Below are positions 2,258 through 58,663 of a DNA stretch of 64,000 bases, piece by piece. Both the position numbers and the translations under genes were made by a program. Origin of the DNA: Mycobacteriales bacterium. Its GTDB lineage: Bacteria > Actinomycetota > Actinomycetes > BP-191. Under the pieces are notes generated by a model. That model saw only the letters and a list, made by a program, of their open reading frames with translations, searched no databases and was not told the origin of the DNA. Positions within the stretch are counted from its first letter, which is position 1; every line of letters starts with the position of its first letter. Location: assembly GCA_036382875.1 (NCBI GenBank), contig DASVPJ010000044.1, forward strand, positions 159,891 through 223,890. Direction: 5' to 3'.

Positions 2258-2416
2258 ATGAGCACGGAGGAGCTGGCGGAACGCCGCCGCCGCCGCGAGG
2301 AGCTGCTCGAGCAGCGCGCGGCGATGTCGTCCTGGCGCGACCGCCTCCTCGCCCGCCGGACGAAGTACCTCAACGCCCGCCGCGAGCTCGCGCACCGGCT
2401 CAGCCAGCGGTCGTGA
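2258..2416 (+). CDS. Hypothetical small basic coiled-coil protein (52 aa)
   Basis: Absent from the ORF track (<60 aa). ATG at 2258 and TGA at 2414-2416. GC3 is very high and the sequence is Arg/Glu-rich. Confidence 0.45.
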   Translation: MSTEELAERRRRREELLEQRAAMSSWRDRLLARRTKYLNARRELAHRLSQRS

Positions 2417-3413
2417 CCAGCCGGTAGGACGCCGGCCACGCGCCCGGCACGCGTTCGACCAGGCCCCGCGTCTCCAGGTGCCGCAGGTGCGCCAGGGCCT
2501 CGCCGAGCGCCACCCGCTTCATGAACGGCGCGATGTCGTCCCACGCGCGGTTCCACGGCATCGACGCGGCGATGTCCCACGTCGTCAACGGGCCGCCGCG
2601 CAACGACGCGACCAGACCGGCGAGCCGTTCCTCGTGGTGCGCGGACAGCTCGTCGACCCGCTCGGCCATCGCGGTGAACCGGCCGACGTGCGCCGGCAGC
2701 ACCTCGTCAACCGGCTCGGCACGCACCTTCGCCAGCGACGCGAGGTAGTCGCCGAGCGGGTCGGCGCTGGTCTCCTCGTCGTAGAGCCCGATGTGCGGGC
2801 TGATCCGCGGCATCACGTGGTCGCCGGCCAGCAACAGCCCGTCCACCGCGAAGCAGGTGTGGCCGGGCGAGTGGCCGGGGGTCCAGATCGCGCGGACCTC
2901 CCACCCCGGCACGTCGACCCAGTCGCCGTCCGCGAACAGCCGCGTCGGCAGCGCCGGCAGCTCCCGGCGGTGCGGCGCGATGCCGGTGAAGTCCGGCAGC
3001 GCGCCGAGCACCTCCTCCGGAGCGCCGGCCGACAGCATCACGGCGGCGGTCTCCAGCAGCCACGTCTCGGCGGTGTCCCGCCACCGCGAGACGACCCAGG
3101 CGTCCTCGGGGTGCATCGCGAGCCACGCACCGGACGCGTCGCGCACCTTGCCGGACAGGCCGTGGTGGTCGGGGTGGACGTGCGTCACGAGCACGCCGTA
3201 GACGTCCGCGACGTCGTGGCCGGTCTCGGCGATGCCAGCGCGCAACGCCTCCCACGCCTGCGGGTCGTCCCAGCCGGTGTCCACGAGCACCGGGCCGGAC
3301 GCGGTCTCGAACAGGTAGACCAGCGTGAAGCCGAGCGGGTTGTCGGGGATCAGGACCGGCACCGACCACAGGCCCGGCCGGAGCTGCTCGACCGGAGGGG
3401 GACGCAACGCCAC
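2400..3413 (-). CDS. MBL-fold metallo-hydrolase
   Basis: Metallo-beta-lactamase motif 'THVHPDHHG' and later 'GHSPGH'. GTG start. Confidence 0.85.
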   Translation of the reverse strand: MALRPPPVEQLRPGLWSVPVLIPDNPLGFTLVYLFETASGPVLVDTGWDDPQAWEALRAGIAETGHDVADVYGVLVTHVHPDHHGLSGKVRDASGAWLAMHPEDAWVVSRWRDTAETWLLETAAVMLSAGAPEEVLGALPDFTGIAPHRRELPALPTRLFADGDWVDVPGWEVRAIWTPGHSPGHTCFAVDGLLLAGDHVMPRISPHIGLYDEETSADPLGDYLASLAKVRAEPVDEVLPAHVGRFTAMAERVDELSAHHEERLAGLVASLRGGPLTTWDIAASMPWNRAWDDIAPFMKRVALGEALAHLRHLETRGLVERVPGAWPASYRLVTTAG

Positions 3414-3416
3414 CGG

Positions 3417-4352
3417 CTACGCCCGCGGCGCCGGCGCGGCCGGGCCCGCCGCCTCGAGCGTGCGCAGCAGCGCGATGCGCTCGGTCAGCGGCGGGTGGGT
3501 GTCGAACATGCCGTTGAGCCACGAGCCCTTGGCCTCGCGCTCGAGCGGGCTCTCGATCCAGAGGTGGGCCATCGCGTGCGACGTGTGCGACACCACCGTC
3601 GAGTCCTGGAGCAACGTCTCCAGCGCCCGCCGCAGCCCGGTCGGGTTGCGGGTCAGCGCGACCGCGGACGCATCGGCGAGCGCCTCGCGCTGGCGCGACA
3701 CGGCGGCCTGGATCAGCGCGGCCCCGAGCGGCGCGAGGACGAGCGCGACGACGCCGAGCACCAGCAGCAGCATCTCGAGGCCGCCGCCCTCGCTGTCGCT
3801 GCGCCGCCGGGAGCGGCCGCCGAAGAACGAGAACCGCCAGAACAGGTCGCAGAGCACGACGATCGCGCCGCACACCGCGACGACGAGCGTCGTGACGCGG
3901 GTGTCGCGGTTGAGCACGTGCGCCACCTCGTGGCCGATCACGCCCTGGAGCTGCTCGCGGTCGAGGCGTTCGAGCAGCCCGGTCGTCACCGCGACGACCG
4001 CGTGGTCCGGGTCACGTCCGGTGGCGAACGCGTTCGGCGCCGGGTCGCGCACGACCATCACGCGCGGCTTCGGCAGCCCGGCCGCGATCGCCATCTCCTC
4101 GACCACGTTGTGGAGCTGCGGCGCCTGCTCCGGCGTCACCTCGCGCGCGCCGGCGATGGACAGCGCGAGCTTGTCGGAGAAGTAGTACGACGAGACGGTG
4201 CCGACGCTCGCGATCACCAGCGCCACCACGAGGCCCGCCGGCCCGCCGCCGATGTAGAGGTTGAACGCCTCGGCGACGAGCAGCAGCAGCACGAACGCGG
4301 TGGTGACCAGGAACCACGAACGCCTGCGGTTGCGGGCGATCGCGTCGTACAC
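3417..4352 (-). CDS. htpX: M48 family zinc metalloprotease HtpX-like
   Basis: Motif 'HEVAHV', N-terminal TM helices, and the conserved HtpX-LemA gene pairing. Confidence 0.85.
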   Translation of the reverse strand: MYDAIARNRRRSWFLVTTAFVLLLLVAEAFNLYIGGGPAGLVVALVIASVGTVSSYYFSDKLALSIAGAREVTPEQAPQLHNVVEEMAIAAGLPKPRVMVVRDPAPNAFATGRDPDHAVVAVTTGLLERLDREQLQGVIGHEVAHVLNRDTRVTTLVVAVCGAIVVLCDLFWRFSFFGGRSRRRSDSEGGGLEMLLLVLGVVALVLAPLGAALIQAAVSRQREALADASAVALTRNPTGLRRALETLLQDSTVVSHTSHAMAHLWIESPLEREAKGSWLNGMFDTHPPLTERIALLRTLEAAGPAAPAPRA

Positions 4353-4364
4353 GCGGTGCCTCTC

Positions 4365-4928
4365 TTAGAACTGCACCTGGACGGGGTTCCGCGACGGGTC
4401 CGTCGGGTCCAGCTCGAAGTAGTCGCGGCGGGGGACGTTCGCCATCGGCGCCACGAGCGAGGTCGGGATCGTCTCGATCGCGGTGTTGTTCTGCCGCACG
4501 GTGTCGTTGTAGTGCTGGCGGGCGAACGCGATCTTGTTCTCGGTCGTCGTCAGCTCCTCCTGGAGCGCGGCGAAGTTCTGGTTCGCCTTGAGGTCCGGGT
4601 ACGCCTCGGCGACGGCGAGCAGCCCGCGCAGCGCGTTGGTCAGCGCGCCCTCGGCCTGGCCGATCGCCGCCGGGCTGGCACCCTGCGCGCTCAGCGCCTG
4701 CGCGGCGTTGCGCGCCGCGGTGACGCCTTCGAGCGTCGCGCGCTCGTGCGCGGCGTAGCCCTTGACGGTCTCGACGAGGTTCGGGATGAGGTCGTAGCGC
4801 CGCCGGAGCTGCACGTCGATCTGCGCCCACGCCTCGTCCACCCGGTTACGCAGCCGGACGAGCTTGTTGTAGAGGACGACGAAGATCAGGACGAGCAGCA
4901 CGACTACCCCGAGCACGATCCAGAGCAC
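4365..4928 (-). CDS. lemA: LemA family protein
   Basis: 'LYNKLVRLRNRVDEAWAQIDVQLRRRYDLIPNLVE' matches the LemA core. GTG start at 4928 is preceded by a 'gggaggg' RBS. The long N-terminal extension in the ORF track was rejected. Confidence 0.85.
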   Translation of the reverse strand: MLWIVLGVVVLLVLIFVVLYNKLVRLRNRVDEAWAQIDVQLRRRYDLIPNLVETVKGYAAHERATLEGVTAARNAAQALSAQGASPAAIGQAEGALTNALRGLLAVAEAYPDLKANQNFAALQEELTTTENKIAFARQHYNDTVRQNNTAIETIPTSLVAPMANVPRRDYFELDPTDPSRNPVQVQF

Positions 4929-4944
4929 GGCGGTTCCCTCCCGG

Positions 4945-5766
4945 ATGTGGTTGCCTACGCGCATCGTGGACCACGAACGGCCGCATGGCCACATTCCGGG
5001 CGCGGGGGGCGTCCCGCTGCACGCCGAGGCGTACGGCTCCGGCGACCCGGTGACGGTGTTCGCGGCCGGTCTCGGCGGCACGATCCCCGAGACGCGGACG
5101 CTCGCGTCGGGGGTCGGCGGGACCAGGGTGTTCTACGACGTGCGCGGTCACGGCGGGTCGGGCGTGCCCGCCGACGGCGACTGGTCGTACGCCGCGCTGG
5201 CCGGCGACCTGCGGGCCGTGGCGGGCGCGTACGGAGCCACCCGCGCGGTCGGTGTCTCGATGGGCGCGGCCGCGATGCTCGGCGTGCTCGCCGCGGCGCC
5301 GGACCGGTTCACGCACTGCGTGTTCTTCCTGCCCGCGATCCTCGACACCGCGCGGTCGGACGTGGCGACGACGCGGCTGGGCCGGCTCGCGGCGCGCATC
5401 GACTCCGGCGACGTCGCGGCCGTCGAGGAGCTGCTCGCCGCCGAGCTGCCGGCGCCGCTGCGCTCCTCGCCGGAGGTGGTGGCGTACGTCCGCGCGCGCG
5501 CCGCGACGCTGTCCGGGCCCGGCGTCGCCGGGCTGGTCCGCTGCCTGGTGTCGTCCGCGCCGGTCGCGTCCCGCGCGGCACTCGCGCCGGTCACCGCGCG
5601 CTGCCTCGTCGTCGGCCAGGAGGGCGACGAGGTGCACCCGGCGCGCCTCGCCCGCGAGCTGGCCGAGGCGCTGCCGGGCGCGCGGCTGCACGTGTTCGGC
5701 ACGCCGGGCGGGCTGTGGGCGCACCGGCGCGAGCTGCGGTCACTCGTCGGGGAGTTCCTGGCGTAA
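4945..5766 (+). CDS. Alpha/beta hydrolase fold protein
   Basis: Motifs 'VFAAGLGG' and 'GVSMGAAA' (nucleophile elbow GxSxG). Start is uncertain (ATG 4945 or GTG 4966) and lies tightly divergent from lemA. Confidence 0.7.
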   Translation: MWLPTRIVDHERPHGHIPGAGGVPLHAEAYGSGDPVTVFAAGLGGTIPETRTLASGVGGTRVFYDVRGHGGSGVPADGDWSYAALAGDLRAVAGAYGATRAVGVSMGAAAMLGVLAAAPDRFTHCVFFLPAILDTARSDVATTRLGRLAARIDSGDVAAVEELLAAELPAPLRSSPEVVAYVRARAATLSGPGVAGLVRCLVSSAPVASRAALAPVTARCLVVGQEGDEVHPARLARELAEALPGARLHVFGTPGGLWAHRRELRSLVGEFLA

Positions 5767-54165: not shown

Positions 54166-55093
54166 CGCGCGCGTCATCCCGATCCGCGACCACGGCCCGG
54201 CCGCCCCCGCGCCGGAGCCGCTGGACCTGGCCGACCTGGCCGAGGACGACGCCCCCGAGTGGGAACGCCGCGTTGCCGGCGCGCTCGCGTTCCTGCGCCG
54301 CCGGATCACCGGCGACTACCCGGTGGACGACTTCGGCTTCGACCCGGACCTCACCGACCACGTGCTGCTGCCGGCGGTGCGCCCGCTGTACGAGAAGTGG
54401 TTCCGCGTCGAGGCGCGCGGCCTCGACAACGTCCCGTCCACCGGCGGCGCGCTGATCGTCGCCAACCACTCCGGCACGCTGCCGCTCGACGCGATCGGCG
54501 TGGCGCTGCCGCTGCTCGACGACCACCCGGCGCACCGGCACCTGCGGATGCTCGGCGCCGACCTGGTGTTCCGGCTGCCGGTGCTCGCGCCGCTCGCCCG
54601 CAAGGCCGGGCACACGCTGGCCTGCAACGAGGACGCCGAGCGGCTGCTCTCCTCCGGCGAGCTGGTCGGCGTGTGGCCCGAGGGCTTCAAGGGCGTCGGC
54701 AAGCCGTTCAGCGAGCGGTACAAGCTGCAGCGCTTCGGCCGCGGCGGCTTCGTGTCGGCCGCGCTGCGCACCGGTGTGCCGATCATCCCGGTGTCGATCG
54801 TCGGCGCCGAGGAGATCTACCCGATGATCGGCAACCTCAAGACGCTGGCCCGGCTGCTCGGGCTGCCGTACGTCCCGGTGACGCCGACGTTCCCGCTGCT
54901 CGGCCCGCTCGGCGCGGTGCCGTTGCCGTCGAAGTGGCTCATCGAGTTCGGCGAGCCGATCCACACCGACCACCTCGGCCCGGCCGCCGCCGACGACCCG
55001 ATGCTCGTGTTCAACCTCACCGACCAGGTGCGCGAGGTCATCCAGCAGACGCTCTACCGGCTGCTGATGCAGCGGCGTTCGGTCTGGTACTGA
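54158..55093 (+). CDS. Lysophospholipid (1-acyl-sn-glycerol-3-phosphate) acyltransferase family (Rv0502-like)
   Basis: 'VANHSGTLPLD' (HX4D motif) and 'VPIIPVSIVGAEE'. Confidence 0.8.
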   Translation: MPDARVIPIRDHGPAAPAPEPLDLADLAEDDAPEWERRVAGALAFLRRRITGDYPVDDFGFDPDLTDHVLLPAVRPLYEKWFRVEARGLDNVPSTGGALIVANHSGTLPLDAIGVALPLLDDHPAHRHLRMLGADLVFRLPVLAPLARKAGHTLACNEDAERLLSSGELVGVWPEGFKGVGKPFSERYKLQRFGRGGFVSAALRTGVPIIPVSIVGAEEIYPMIGNLKTLARLLGLPYVPVTPTFPLLGPLGAVPLPSKWLIEFGEPIHTDHLGPAAADDPMLVFNLTDQVREVIQQTLYRLLMQRRSVWY

Positions 55094-55125
55094 GCGAGTA
55101 CGGCACCACGCAGGTCCCCGTCGTC

Positions 55126-55536
55126 GTGACGCGGACCGAGTGGCTGTCGCGGACGTACGCCTCCCGCATCGGGCCGGTCGGCGGCGCGGGGCACTACGAC
55201 GTCTGGCGCGTCGAGGTCGACCTCGCCGCGGCCGAGCCGGTGCTGCCGGTGCAGCTGCGCCGCGAGAACGGCGGGTTGTCGCGCCAGACGCCCTGGCGCA
55301 AGGGCGCGGCGGTCGAGCTCACGGTCGTGGTGCGCGTGCCGTGCGCGCGGGAGGAGGCGGCGTTGCTGCTGTCCGAGGGCGACCGGCTGCACAGCGGCGC
55401 GGCGTGGCCCGTCGTGTCGTGGCCGGGCGGCGGCGAGGAAATCGGTCTGGTCGCGAAGCGCGACACCCGCGACTCGCACGGGCGCTGGCGCCTGCGTCAG
55501 TCCGGCATCGGCAACGGCCTGCGGGAGCGCACGTAG
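55126..55536 (+). CDS. Hypothetical protein
   Basis: High GC3 in frame 1 after the acyltransferase stop. Start codon unclear (GTG 55126 proposed; could be upstream). Confidence 0.4.
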   Translation: MTRTEWLSRTYASRIGPVGGAGHYDVWRVEVDLAAAEPVLPVQLRRENGGLSRQTPWRKGAAVELTVVVRVPCAREEAALLLSEGDRLHSGAAWPVVSWPGGGEEIGLVAKRDTRDSHGRWRLRQSGIGNGLRERT

Positions 55537-56020
55537 GCGACGCCGAACGCGCTGGCGATCGTGAGCGCGACGGCGAGCGGTACGACGCCGGACTCGCGGC
55601 CGGGGACGTCGGTCGCCGGCGGGTACGTCGTCAGCCGCAGGCTCGCGAGGACGGCGTCCGGATCGGAGTGCGGGTTGCCGCCGCAGCCGCTGACGTCGCC
55701 GTCATAGCCGCCGACGTACAGCCGGCGTCCCTCCGGGGGCCTGGCCGGCTCCGCCTCGGTCCCGAAGCGGCCACAGCCTCGCGGGGCACGGTTCGCCAGC
55801 ACGAGCCACGGCCCCACCGAGCCGCGGGCGACCGCGTCGACGCGCATCTCCCAGTGGATCTGGTCGAGCCGCTTCGTGACCTCGCCGACGACCACCACGT
55901 CCGCGTTCGCGAGCTGGGTCTCCAGCGGCTCCCGCGACCGCACAGGCACGCGAACGCCGGGCGGGGGAGGAGCACCGTCGCCCCCGCCACCATCACGAGC
56001 ACCAGCAGCCGGCGGGTCAT
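55497..56020 (-). pseudogene. Frameshifted paralog of the adjacent CxC-motif membrane-anchored protein
   Basis: Signal peptide and 'RPAFACLC' are in one frame (ATG 56020); the homologous mature region 'EPLETQLANADVVVVGEV...' continues in the +1 frame. Shift maps to a G-run near 55931-55935. Confidence 0.55.
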
Positions 56021-56556
56021 CGCGCGAGCCGCAGGGCGGCGAGGTCGGCGGCGTCGCGGCGGCGCCGGCGGCGTTCCTCGGGCGTGCGCCGGGCGATCGG
56101 CAGCGAGACCACGCCGAGCGCCGCGATGGCCGCGCTGACCCAGCCGCCGCCGCCCCTGTCGTCGGCGCCGGGCAGCGGGGCGTACCCCGGCAGGCCGACG
56201 TCCTCGGACGTCCTGAACATCACGTGGCGGCACTGCCCGGTGACGAGCTCGCGGGGCCCGGCGTAGACGACAGGACCCGGGCCGGGCGGGCTCGCCGAGC
56301 AGGACGAGAACGGCGCCAGGTCCGTGTGCAGCAGCGTGATCCGGCGTACCCGGCCCTTGTACACGCGGTCGACGCGCACCTCGGACTTGCCCTCGCCGAC
56401 GTACGCGACGACCTCGCCCTCGAACACCACGTCCGCGTTCGCGACGGCCGCGGGGAGCTCGGGCGGCCCGGCGCACGAGCAGGCGAACGCCGGCCGCGTC
56501 CAGAACGTCGCCGCCGCCACGAGCCCGAGCACCACGAGGCTCCGCGACCCGCGCAT
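56017..56556 (-). CDS. Secreted/membrane-anchored hypothetical protein with N-terminal 'RPAFACSC' motif and C-terminal TM + basic tail
   Basis: ATG 56556 with 'gggggtgggcg' RBS. Signal peptide; C-terminal TM 'VSAAIAALGVVSLPIA' then 'RRRRRR'. ATGA overlap with the downstream paralog. Confidence 0.6.
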   Translation of the reverse strand: MRGSRSLVVLGLVAAATFWTRPAFACSCAGPPELPAAVANADVVFEGEVVAYVGEGKSEVRVDRVYKGRVRRITLLHTDLAPFSSCSASPPGPGPVVYAGPRELVTGQCRHVMFRTSEDVGLPGYAPLPGADDRGGGGWVSAAIAALGVVSLPIARRTPEERRRRRRDAADLAALRLAR

Positions 56557-56597
56557 CGCCCACCCCCATCCGTTCGGGCCAGTGGGGCCCGTCCAGG

Positions 56598-57569
56598 TCA
56601 CGCGAGGGTCAAGGTCTCGGCACCTTCGTCGGTCACCAGCAGCGTGTGCTCGAACTGCGCCGTCCGCTTCAGGTCGACGGTCACCGCGGTCCAGTCGTCG
56701 TCCCACATCCGGTGCTCCCACGACCCGACCGTGATCATCGGCTCGATGGTGAACGTCATCCCCGGCTCGAGCCGCGTCGTCGCGCGCGGGTCGTAGTAGT
56801 GCGGCACCTGCGGGTCGGCGTGGAACGTCGCCCCGATGCCGTGCCCGACGAACGCGCGCACGACGCCGAAGCCGTTCGACTCCGCGTGCTCCTGGATCGC
56901 CTTGCCGATGTCGCGCACCTGCCCGCCCGGCCGCACCGCCGCGATGCCGAGGTCGAGGCACTCCTTCGTCACCTGGACCAGGCGGTGGGACTCCTCGTCG
57001 ACCTCGCCGACGAGGAACGTCGCGTTGGTGTCGCCGTGCATCCCGTCCAGGAAGATCGTCACGTCGAGGTTCACGATGTCGCCGTCGTGCAGCACCGACG
57101 AGTCGGGGATGCCGTGGCAGATGACCTCGTTGACGCTGGTGCACAGCGACTTCGGGAAGCCGTTGTAGTTGAGCGGGCTCGGGTAGCCGCCGCGGCGGAT
57201 GCACTCCTCGTGCGCGATCGCGTCGAGCTCGTCGGTCGTGATGCCGGGACGGACCGCGGCGCCGACCGTCTGGAGCACCTCGGCCGCCGCGCGGCCGGCG
57301 CGGCGCATCCGCTCGATCTCCTCCGGCGTCTTCGGCCGGCCGCTGCCGCGCACCCGCGTCGGCCGGCCGCTCTCCGCGTACTCGGGCCGCGGGATGTGCG
57401 GCGGCACCGGGCGCATCGGCGAGACGCGGCCTGGCTTCACCCGCCGCGCGGCGTCGGCCTTCGCCGCCGCGGCGGCCGGGTCGAGGTCGGCGAGCCGGTG
57501 GCAGCGCTTGTAGCGACGCCCGCTGCCGCACCAGCAGAGGTCGTTCGCGCTGAGAGTGGTCGTGGTCAT
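56598..57569 (-). CDS. map: Type I methionyl aminopeptidase with N-terminal SEC-C-like zinc finger extension
   Basis: N-terminal '[13 protein letters not shown]'. Catalytic 'HGIPD', 'DIVNLDVT' and 'GHGIG' motifs. Confidence 0.88.
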
Positions 57570-58468
57570 CGGGTACCAGCGTAGACGGCGTTGCGCCGCC
57601 TCCGGTACGCCAACCCGGCCATCACCCCGCCGACGACCGCGCCGACCCCCGCCGCCGCGGGCACGCCGACCAGCACCGCCTTGCGCCCGGTGCGGAAGTC
57701 GCGGACGTCCCAGCCCCGCTGCCGGGCGATGTCGCGCAGCTCGCCGTCCGGGTTCACGGCGACGGCGTGGCCGACGACGGAGAGCATCGGGACGTCGTTC
57801 GCCGAGTCGCTGTACGCCGTGCAGCGGCTCAGGTCCAGCCCCTCCCGCTCGGCCAGCGCGCGCACCGCCTCCGCCTTCGCGGCCCCGTGCAACGGCTCCC
57901 CGACCAGCCGCCCGGTGTAGCGGCCGTCCTCCACCTCGGACACCGTGCCGAGCGCGCCGGTGAGGCCGAGCCGGCGGCTGACGATGCTGGCCAGCTCCAC
58001 CGGCGTGGCCGTGACGATCCAGACCCGCTGGCCGTTGTCGAGGTGCTGCTGCGCCAGCGCCCGCGTCCCGCTGTAGATGCGGTGCGCCATCAGCTCGTCG
58101 TAGATCTCCTCGCCGTAGGCGACGATCTCCGCGACCTCCCGCCCCTTCACGAACGCGAGCGCCGCCTCGCGCGCCTCCAGCATCGCGCCGTGCGACTCCG
58201 TGCCCTTCAGCCGGAACATGAGCTGGTCCCACGCGAAGCCCAGCAGGTCCCGGGACGTGAAGAGCTTCCGCGCCGCCAGGCCCTTGGCGAAGTGGAAGAT
58301 GCTGGCGCCGACCATGAGGGTGTTGTCGCAGTCGAAGAACGCGGCCGCGGTCGGGTCCGGTGGCACCTCCAGCGCCTGCTCGACCTCGGCGGCGGCTGCG
58401 CTCGCCGCGCCGCTCAGTACGTGCACGACCTCCTCGTCGCGCCTGCGCCTCCTGAACACGCCTTGCAC
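57566..58468 (-). CDS. HAD-IB family hydrolase (SerB/Rv0505c-like)
   Basis: 'AFFDCDNTL' (DxDxT) and the downstream '[10 protein letters not shown]'. GTG start. Confidence 0.8.
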
Positions 58469-58663
58469 CCTAGTGGGGTGGTTACGGCGTACCGGCGCGC
58501 CTAGGGCGCCTGCGGCGCTTTAGTCGGCGCACCGGCACGCCGTACCCACCCCCCAAGCCCGCCCCTCCCACTGCGTCGTACGCCGCCGCGTCGAGCGGCG
58601 GCGGACGACGGCTCGCGCCGCGCGTCACCTTGCGCCCCCCGCTCCCGCCTTCCTCCTGACATG

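Follow-up and report, generated by a model that had tools for sequence, protein, structure and literature searches.

In a 64,000-nucleotide stretch of high-GC, actinobacterial DNA from a soil Mycobacteriales bacterium (GenBank assembly GCA_036382875.1, contig DASVPJ010000044.1, positions 159,891 to 223,890 of the forward strand; here called the window), two adjacent minus-strand genes, A and B, overlap by the four bases ATGA, which hold the stop codon of A and the start codon of B. Their features are collected in Table 1, in which ORF stands for open reading frame, GC3 for the GC content at third codon positions and TM for transmembrane. The product of gene A is identical to HEX8004742.1 (VF519_18805; P0001 among our relatives), which is annotated as 'hypothetical protein' in a Mycobacteriales metagenome-assembled genome (MAG). 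The original prediction for this locus described A and B as paralogues of common layout, and the function of their family as unknown. This last statement can be improved on, as profiles and fold place the family in homology with the N-terminal, inhibitory domain of the animal tissue inhibitors of metalloproteinases (TIMPs). Gene A itself very probably encodes a homologue of that domain, with a TIMP/NTR-type OB fold. The overall explanation that best accounts for the locus, in which A is such a homologue and inhibits through its first cysteine and B is a pseudogene, is considered probable as a whole, with some reserve.

Table 1. Positions of the features of genes A and B in the window
Feature	Position	Strand	Basis
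Gene A, intact TIMP-like protein, 179 aa	56556-56017 including stop (ATG 56556, TGA 56019-56017)	minus	ORF and translation; GC3 ~1.0 throughout
Gene A signal peptide, residues 1-25 MRGSRSLVVLGLVAAATFWTRPAFA, predicted signal peptidase I site AFA/C	56482..56556	minus	read from sequence
Gene A mature TIMP-N-like (OB-fold) ectodomain, residues 26-135	56152..56481	minus	profiles, hhalign, AlphaFold, Foldseek
Gene A conserved Cys, mature numbering	C1 56479-56481; C3 56473-56475; C61 56299-56301; C84 56230-56232	minus	
Gene A C-terminal TM helix WVSAAIAALGVVSLPIA	56092..56142	minus	read from sequence
Gene A cytoplasmic Arg-rich tail RRTPEERRRRRRDAADLAALRLAR	56020..56091	minus	kept in closest relatives P0002-P0004 (alignments)
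ATGA overlap, stop of A / start of B	56017..56020 (ATG of B 56020-56018)	minus	direct reading of sequence
Gene B 5' segment in ATG frame, signal peptide and CLCGRG, residues 1-30	55931..56020	minus	translation; GC3 1.0 to ~55935
Gene B frameshift zone GGT CGC GGG A, net -1, one base missing (GGG run 55933-55931)	55929..55940	minus	
Gene B 3' segment, -1 frame: TIMP-like domain from EPLETQLANADVV, TM helix 55586-55530, short basic tail, stop	55497..55931	minus	

The mature N-terminus of A, CSCAGPPELPAAVANADVVFEGEV, resembles that of TIMP-2, a likeness which we used as a lead and then tested. When an 8-sequence family profile was compared with the PDB, TIMP-2 (2tmp_A) was retrieved at an E-value of 5.4e-5 and aligned from mature residue 1. 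The 142-sequence profile retrieved TIMP-2 at 4.5e-10, TIMP-3 at 3.5e-7 and TIMP-1 at 2.5e-5, again from mature residue 1; its top 15 PDB matches were TIMPs in 15 of 15 cases, and no other NTR module was found at E<1e-3. In this alignment, the CSC, the 'sCG' cysteine and the 'lC' cysteine stand on Cys1/3, Cys72 and Cys101 of the TIMPs. A comparison of A's own clade with N-TIMP-2 by hhalign (E 2.5e-5) likewise set C26/C28/C86/C109 of the precursor on C1/C3/C72/C101. Judged by its sequence, the layout 'RPAFA-CSC ... ANADVV' is the signature of the TIMP N-terminal domain. A single-sequence search of A against the PDB returned only noise.

Part of the family is already visible to the Pfam TIMP model (PF00965), for which the gathering score is 23.1 bits. 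Four of the ten relatives tested exceeded this score (P0006 with 36.8, P0133 with 29.0, P0139 with 27.8 and P0142 with 24.0 bits), and the relatives' matches started at profile position 2 and ended at about position 115 of 183, covering the N-domain only. One of these, P0006, is a homologue of A and carries a precomputed PF00965 match. Since the Pfam model already captures part of the bacterial family, the TIMP homology is latent in the databases and not wholly new. The closest relatives P0003 and P0137 gave no Pfam TIMP match at E<=0.1, and scans of A and of the conceptually joined B (described below) with NCBIfam and Pfam gave no informative match.

The fold points in the same direction. The AlphaFold model of A made from the 142-sequence alignment had a pLDDT of 84.1 and a pTM of 0.78, and in this model A is predicted to form a beta-barrel of the TIMP/NTR-type OB fold. 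A Foldseek search with the model placed TIMP-1 and TIMP-2 in all of the top 17 PDB matches (E 2.4e-4 to 6.6e-3, probability 1.00, TM-score 0.47-0.59), followed by the NTR modules of PCOLCE, meteorin and agrin NtA at E 0.02-0.07. An earlier AlphaFold run from a shallow 27-sequence alignment had reached a pLDDT of 59.8, and the TIMPs then came top in Foldseek only at E ~0.08. A search of the viral structure library gave no significant match.

The start of the mature chain is of particular importance to the TIMP mechanism. In 253 of the 262 relatives an AxA site for signal peptidase I stands directly before the CxC, so the mature chain should start with a free Cys1; at the predicted cleavage site, A reads AFA/CSC and B reads AFA/CLC. 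Ser2 hardly varies across the family. C86 and C109 of A, which are Cys61 and Cys84 of the mature chain, are invariant or nearly so and align with Cys72 and Cys101 of TIMP-2, and the alignment suggests that they would be the disulfide partners of Cys1 and Cys3.

The CxC had earlier been proposed as a lipobox-like acylation site or a metal-binding motif, in which case the proteins would be lipoproteins or, with the CxC as a free-thiol copper or zinc site, metallochaperones. A cysteine does follow the signal peptide, and a permissive PROSITE-like lipobox pattern fits 28 of the 262 relatives. The strict lipobox fits 1 of the 262, position -2 is often R, H, Q or Y, both cysteines have conserved distal partners aligned to TIMP disulfides, and a lipid anchor would be redundant given the C-terminal TM anchor, all of which make this alternative very unlikely. 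The lipobox L-[ASTVI]-[GAS]-C was accordingly rejected for A, which reads PAFA/C at this place, and the idea of acylation fell with it. The idea of metal binding survives in a changed form: the thiols themselves would be locked in disulfides, and in TIMPs it is the free N-terminal Cys1 that ligates the catalytic zinc of the target.

At the other end of the protein, a C-terminal hydrophobic stretch with a basic tail is present in 100 of the 149 family representatives, and such a helix and tail would tether the domain at the outer face of the membrane. A juxtamembrane motif of the approximate form 'LxALG.G.aPLpGa(S/D)D' lies 5-20 residues before the TM helix and is conserved across subfamilies in the family alignments; its form in gene A is APLPGADD (56158-56175), and gene B is without it. 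By the NCBIfam thresholds this motif is not a sorting signal of the LPXTG type, and neither A nor B gave an NCBIfam match for a sortase or C-terminal sorting signal. P0006 scored below threshold for GVDTG (17.5 bits), LAVTG (15.8 bits) and LPXTG (11.3 bits), the cut-offs being 29, 27 and 15.9, respectively, and these scores reflect its TM helix and RRRR tail.

Grouped at 50% identity, the family comprises 11,498 clusters at a cut-off of E<=1e-3 and 2,200 when the cut-off is E<=1e-10; eukaryotic TIMPs do not add to these counts, since TIMP-2 scores only 26.5 bits against a similar 8-sequence profile. A scan of a genome collection yielded five loci, all in MAGs of Propionibacteriaceae. A homologue of full architecture is present in the cultured actinomycete Nonomuraea gerenzanensis (L053 4899-5591, equal to NZ_LT559118.1 5022016-5022708), where AHA/CSC, a TIMP-like domain, a TM helix and an RRRN tail can be read; it is missing from the gene table, and the species would be a practical organism for experiments. 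Six long relatives (P0126, P0136, P0198, P0211, P0124 and P0132; 460-1,213 aa) carry two or three TIMP-like repeats, and no other Pfam domains were detected in them. Their internal repeats start with 'CPRCA', so the first cysteine of such a repeat cannot be a free N-terminus. The only fusion domains detected among long relatives were CarboxypepD_reg and HpiC1-like ones, and none was a peptidase.

In TIMPs, the alpha-amino and carbonyl groups of Cys1 chelate the zinc of the protease (PMC9890683). By analogy, the most likely function of A is that of a surface-tethered inhibitor of zinc metallopeptidases, both the inhibition and the identity of the target being putative. A Sec-type signal peptide would export the protein and signal peptidase I would cut AFA/CSC, leaving a chain that begins with a free Cys1. 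Cys1 and Cys3 would then bond with Cys61 and Cys84, as counterparts of Cys1-Cys70 and Cys3-Cys99 in TIMPs, and the C-terminal TM helix would keep the domain at the outside of the cytoplasmic membrane, with the Arg-rich tail in the cytoplasm. From this position, the N-terminal edge could push into the active site of a zinc metallopeptidase, located in the cell envelope or the medium, and chelate its catalytic zinc through the alpha-amino and carbonyl groups of Cys1. We give the proposal that A inhibits metallopeptidases through Cys1 slightly better than an even chance.

It is also conceivable, at a distinctly lower probability, that A has the TIMP/NTR fold and is not a protease inhibitor, its membrane-tethered domain instead binding or scaffolding, for example, a partner protein or a polymer of the cell wall. 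Many eukaryotic NTR modules act in this way (agrin NtA, the C-terminal domain of netrin, complement C345C), non-inhibitory modules of this kind (PCOLCE, meteorin, agrin NtA) are among the Foldseek matches, the gene contexts are heterogeneous, and no peptidase is enriched next to family members. However, the sequence profiles match true TIMPs and no other NTR module at the threshold given above, and both the signal peptidase site before Cys1 and Ser2 are nearly invariant; zinc chelation by TIMPs requires both, and generic binding does not. In TIMPs, extension of the N-terminus by an Ala, or its acetylation, abolishes inhibition.

The behaviour of eukaryotic NTR modules is one of several points that weigh against an inhibitor of TIMP type. 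The Foldseek TM-scores are moderate. A and the joined B have no Pfam TIMP match even at E<=10, and their TIMP membership rests, at the level of sequence, on profile and transitive evidence. The third disulfide of the TIMP N-domain (Cys13-Cys124) is absent, there being no cysteine at the column, where TIMP-2 reads 'AFCNADVV' and A reads 'AVANADVV'. The entire C-terminal TIMP domain (~60 residues, three disulfides) is absent as well, and a linker, the TM helix and the basic tail stand in its place. Because of the Pfam threshold, the third disulfide and the C-terminal domain, the proteins are classed not as canonical TIMPs but as a variant of that kind which is bacterial, has a single domain and is anchored in the membrane. 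Furthermore, a Pfam scan found no recurrent metallopeptidase neighbour in 30 loci with 140 flanking ORFs, so the genomes lend support to no particular target. All-against-all clustering of the ORFs of 35 loci, these 30 included, showed no family recurring beyond close relatives, and no recurrent family emerged from a HEXXH motif scan of the flanking ORFs or from a BLAST search with the M23 peptidase of locus L006.

The likeness to known systems is graded. With the N-domain of animal TIMP-1 to TIMP-4 (MEROPS I35, PF00965), the bacterial proteins share predicted signal cleavage directly before Cys1, the motif Cys1-x-Cys3 in which position 2 is Ser or Thr, the segment 'A..NADVV' that leads from helix to strand, the 'SxxCG' cysteine of the C-D loop, the 'LC' cysteine, the OB-fold and the cysteines of two of the three N-domain disulfides. 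They differ in having no C-terminal domain and no Cys13-Cys124, in carrying a TM helix and a basic cytoplasmic tail, in the scores of A and B below the Pfam threshold, and in that inhibition by the bacterial proteins is putative. The NTR modules (PF01759: netrins, PCOLCE, sFRPs, complement C3/C4/C5) and agrin NtA have the fold in common and appear as secondary Foldseek matches, but they are missed by the sequence profile, are internal or C-terminal without a free N-terminal cysteine, and are mostly not inhibitors. The alkaline protease inhibitor APRin of Pseudomonas (MEROPS I38) is a beta-barrel inhibitor of metzincins whose N-terminal residue reaches the catalytic zinc; it is unrelated in sequence to the present family and is encoded next to its cognate protease.

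Two further bacterial systems come close in one respect or another. Tim of Listeria monocytogenes (LMRG_00714), the lipoprotein partner of the metalloprotease Mtz, has a TIMP-like fold and is likewise attached to a bacterial membrane (PMC8235301). Tim has a lipobox (LTAC), is encoded beside its metzincin Mtz and is cleaved by it (PMC8235301), whereas the present family is TIMP-homologous in sequence, has a signal peptidase I site, is anchored by a C-terminal TM helix and lacks an adjacent protease. Potempin A of Tannerella forsythia is likewise a bacterial beta-barrel inhibitor of metzincins, surface-retained or periplasmic, but it is unrelated in sequence, is encoded beside its cognate protease and uses a bilobal mechanism instead of N-terminal chelation (PMC9890683). 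TIMPs have been described as an ancient eukaryotic family which arose early in metazoan evolution (PMC4860685), and the four TIMPs as the only endogenous protein inhibitors of matrix metalloproteinases (PMC9890683); the potempins treated in the latter source are unrelated to the present family. The authors of the Tim study found no literature record of bacterial TIMP-like structures (PMC8235301). In the searchable literature, we found neither a description of bacterial sequence homologues of TIMPs nor an experimental study of this family.

Gene B is read in two frames. In the frame of its ATG it encodes MTRRLLVLVMVAGATVLLPRPAFACLCGRG, followed by about 100 out-of-frame, Arg/Ser-rich residues unlike the family, and stops at 55631. 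What remains of the homologous protein (EPLETQLANADVVVVGEV ... TM ... RSRRP) is encoded in another frame, which ends at 55497. A frame plot of GC3 follows the frame of A at ~1.0 to 56017, the ATG frame of B at 1.0 to ~55935 and the third frame at 0.93-1.0 over ~55940-55497; the coding frame thus changes at ~55940-55930, with GC3 of 0.93-1.0 on either side. When the two pieces are conceptually joined, the product aligns with A at 47% identity over 68 aa (E 5e-13), and it scores 56.4 bits against the 142-sequence family profile made without B, as compared with 25.5 bits for the downstream frame alone and 16.4 bits for the ATG product. The alignment, and a joined score above that of either piece, show that the pieces are halves of one gene.

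These results confirm the original prediction that A and B are adjacent, ATGA-overlapping paralogues and that the signal/CxC segment and the mature domain of B lie in different frames. The direction of the change has to be corrected. It had been called a +1 frameshift, whereas the frame offset falls from 2 to 1, a change of -1, and the distance from CxC to ANADVV is 29 nt in B against 30 nt in A; one base is missing, and no +1 shift of the ribosome is involved. With a further G in the GGG run, CLCGRGEPLETQLANADVV is recovered with the 10-residue spacing of A, and the lost base can be placed only within ~55940-55929. The common layout ascribed to the two proteins holds for the signal peptide, the CxC and the TM helix, but the Gly-rich segment (DDRGGGG) and the poly-Arg tail (RRRRRR) are clear only in A and weak in B (GRESG and RSRRP). 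B keeps all four cysteines, but the nearly invariant Ser2 is replaced by Leu and Phe20 by Val. The DNA similarity of A and B is patchy, so B is not a recent duplicate of A.

The n-region of the signal peptide of B, M-T-R-R-L-L-V-L (start, 56009-56020, minus strand), has a superficial likeness to a Tat motif, and a similar RRLLVL occurs in several relatives. Its very hydrophobic h-region and the disulfide-containing cargo predicted from the sequence argue for export by Sec over Tat.

A pseudogene, a sequencing error and a slippery site had all been offered as causes of the frame change in B. Three contigs (JGI 3300034687; ENA ERZ27253064, assembled with MEGAHIT; Logan SRR10929040) agree in every one of the 1,401 bases at window positions 55300-56700, so the frameshift is real in the assemblies and an assembler artefact is unlikely. 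Of the three causes, a pseudogene is favoured, and B is likely to be a recently inactivated paralogue. It would be a divergent paralogue, once translationally coupled to A, in which one base was lost just after the CxC; as it stands, it would yield only the signal peptide with out-of-frame sequence, or a leaderless fragment, with a probable loss of function. Two observations speak against a pseudogene. GC3 is still 0.93-1.0 and the four cysteines are kept, so that the lesion is either recent or possibly a consensus error. In addition, the three concordant assemblies, although made with different assemblers, probably derive from one shared read set.

The same observations give some room to an improbable alternative, namely that B is intact in the organism, that the G was dropped by an error of sequencing or of the consensus, and that the locus is an ordinary translationally coupled TIMP-like pair. 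This alternative is also consistent with a downstream frame free of in-frame stops, with the retention of most conserved positions besides the cysteines and with an undamaged ATGA coupling. It is opposed by the exact agreement of three different assemblers over the whole region, and by the length of the G run, as a run of three is not a typical site of indel errors in short reads.

The idea that B is still expressed, by a programmed -1 shift of the ribosome or by slippage during transcription of the G run, has the lowest probability of all the readings considered here. The two frames do overlap without a nearby stop, and a -1 slip at GGG would give a full-length protein. However, the junction codons GGT CGC GGG AGC contain no X XXY YYZ heptamer and -1 re-pairing would create mismatches. 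The run of G is limited to 3 nt, and the folding of the 84 nt that follow does not stand out from that of shuffled sequences (z -0.86). The relatives are single intact ORFs, no other family member being known to need a frameshift. In the absence of a slippery heptamer and a stimulatory RNA structure, a programmed frameshift was rejected.

The comparison with orthologues that had been proposed for B came to nothing, since a search of 5.8 billion proteins returned no homologue except its own truncated ORF. There is also no second copy in the loci of A's closest relatives, L004 and L005, whose proteins are 70% and 56% identical to A. In the NCBI record, only the downstream ORF of B is annotated (55949-55497, minus strand), as VF519_18800, a leaderless 'hypothetical protein' of 150 aa; JGI, ENA and Logan call it as 148 aa. 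Neither the frameshift nor the paralogy with the neighbouring gene appears in the public record of VF519_18800. The public annotation thus hides a disrupted paralogue, although the frameshifted copy is itself of minor interest.

The surroundings of the pair are variable. In the window and in L004, a HAD hydrolase and a methionine aminopeptidase gene precede A. In the window, these are a HAD-family hydrolase gene (57566-58468, minus strand) with a 4-nt overlap with the following gene, and a methionine aminopeptidase gene (Peptidase_M24; 56598-57569, minus strand) with an N-terminal SEC-C zinc-binding motif, which ends 41 nt upstream of A. This order is kept in L004 and not in L005, where a CarboxypepD_reg protein, the homologue of A and a Fic protein follow each other. 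In view of its position after the methionine aminopeptidase gene and the order kept in L004, gene A may be co-transcribed with the gene of this cytoplasmic metallopeptidase. A scan of 55000-58600 for promoters and terminators found none. On the other side, all three assemblies have a gene call for a 136-aa ORF at 55126-55536 (plus strand). This ORF is convergent with gene B, overlaps its 3' end by 40 nt and has no Pfam match, and its position is taken in L004 by a 395-aa gene, again without any Pfam match.

The only zinc endopeptidase identified in the window is an M48 (HtpX-like) peptidase, found with a LemA-family gene at 3417-5132 (minus strand), beside a gene of metallo-beta-lactamase fold at 2400-3416; it lies ~50 kb from the TIMP-like pair. 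At the locus of P0006 (L006), the order is prfB, ftsE, ftsX, Peptidase_M23, the TIMP-like gene and smpB. Here (L006 4595-6576), the TIMP-like gene directly follows the Peptidase_M23 gene, both being inserted between ftsE-ftsX and smpB, and a pairing of an inhibitor with a peptidoglycan hydrolase is possible. This adjacency is a single case, which does not recur in ~30 other loci. At the locus of P0043, two ABC ATPases, the TIMP-like gene and DUF2252 stand in a row.

The main interest of the locus lies in the family assignment, and it would be greater if the proteins were shown to inhibit and to be connected with animal TIMPs by evolution. The bacterial family keeps the features needed for the TIMP mechanism, that is, a free Cys1 by predicted cleavage, the CSC and the two presumed anchoring disulfides. 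In a broader proposal, which is tentative and rather doubtful, the family would form a bacterial branch of true TIMPs, uncharacterised and very large (more than 10,000 clusters), mostly one-domain and membrane-tethered, inhibiting extracytoplasmic zinc metallopeptidases, endogenous or in defence, in Actinobacteria and other phyla, and it might represent the evolutionary origin of the TIMP family, which at present counts as an innovation of metazoans, or else an old horizontal acquisition of that family. If metallopeptidase inhibition proves true, these proteins would add a new layer to the control of cell-envelope proteolysis in bacteria, provide a simple two-disulfide TIMP scaffold for protein engineering, and open a way of testing where animal TIMPs came from.

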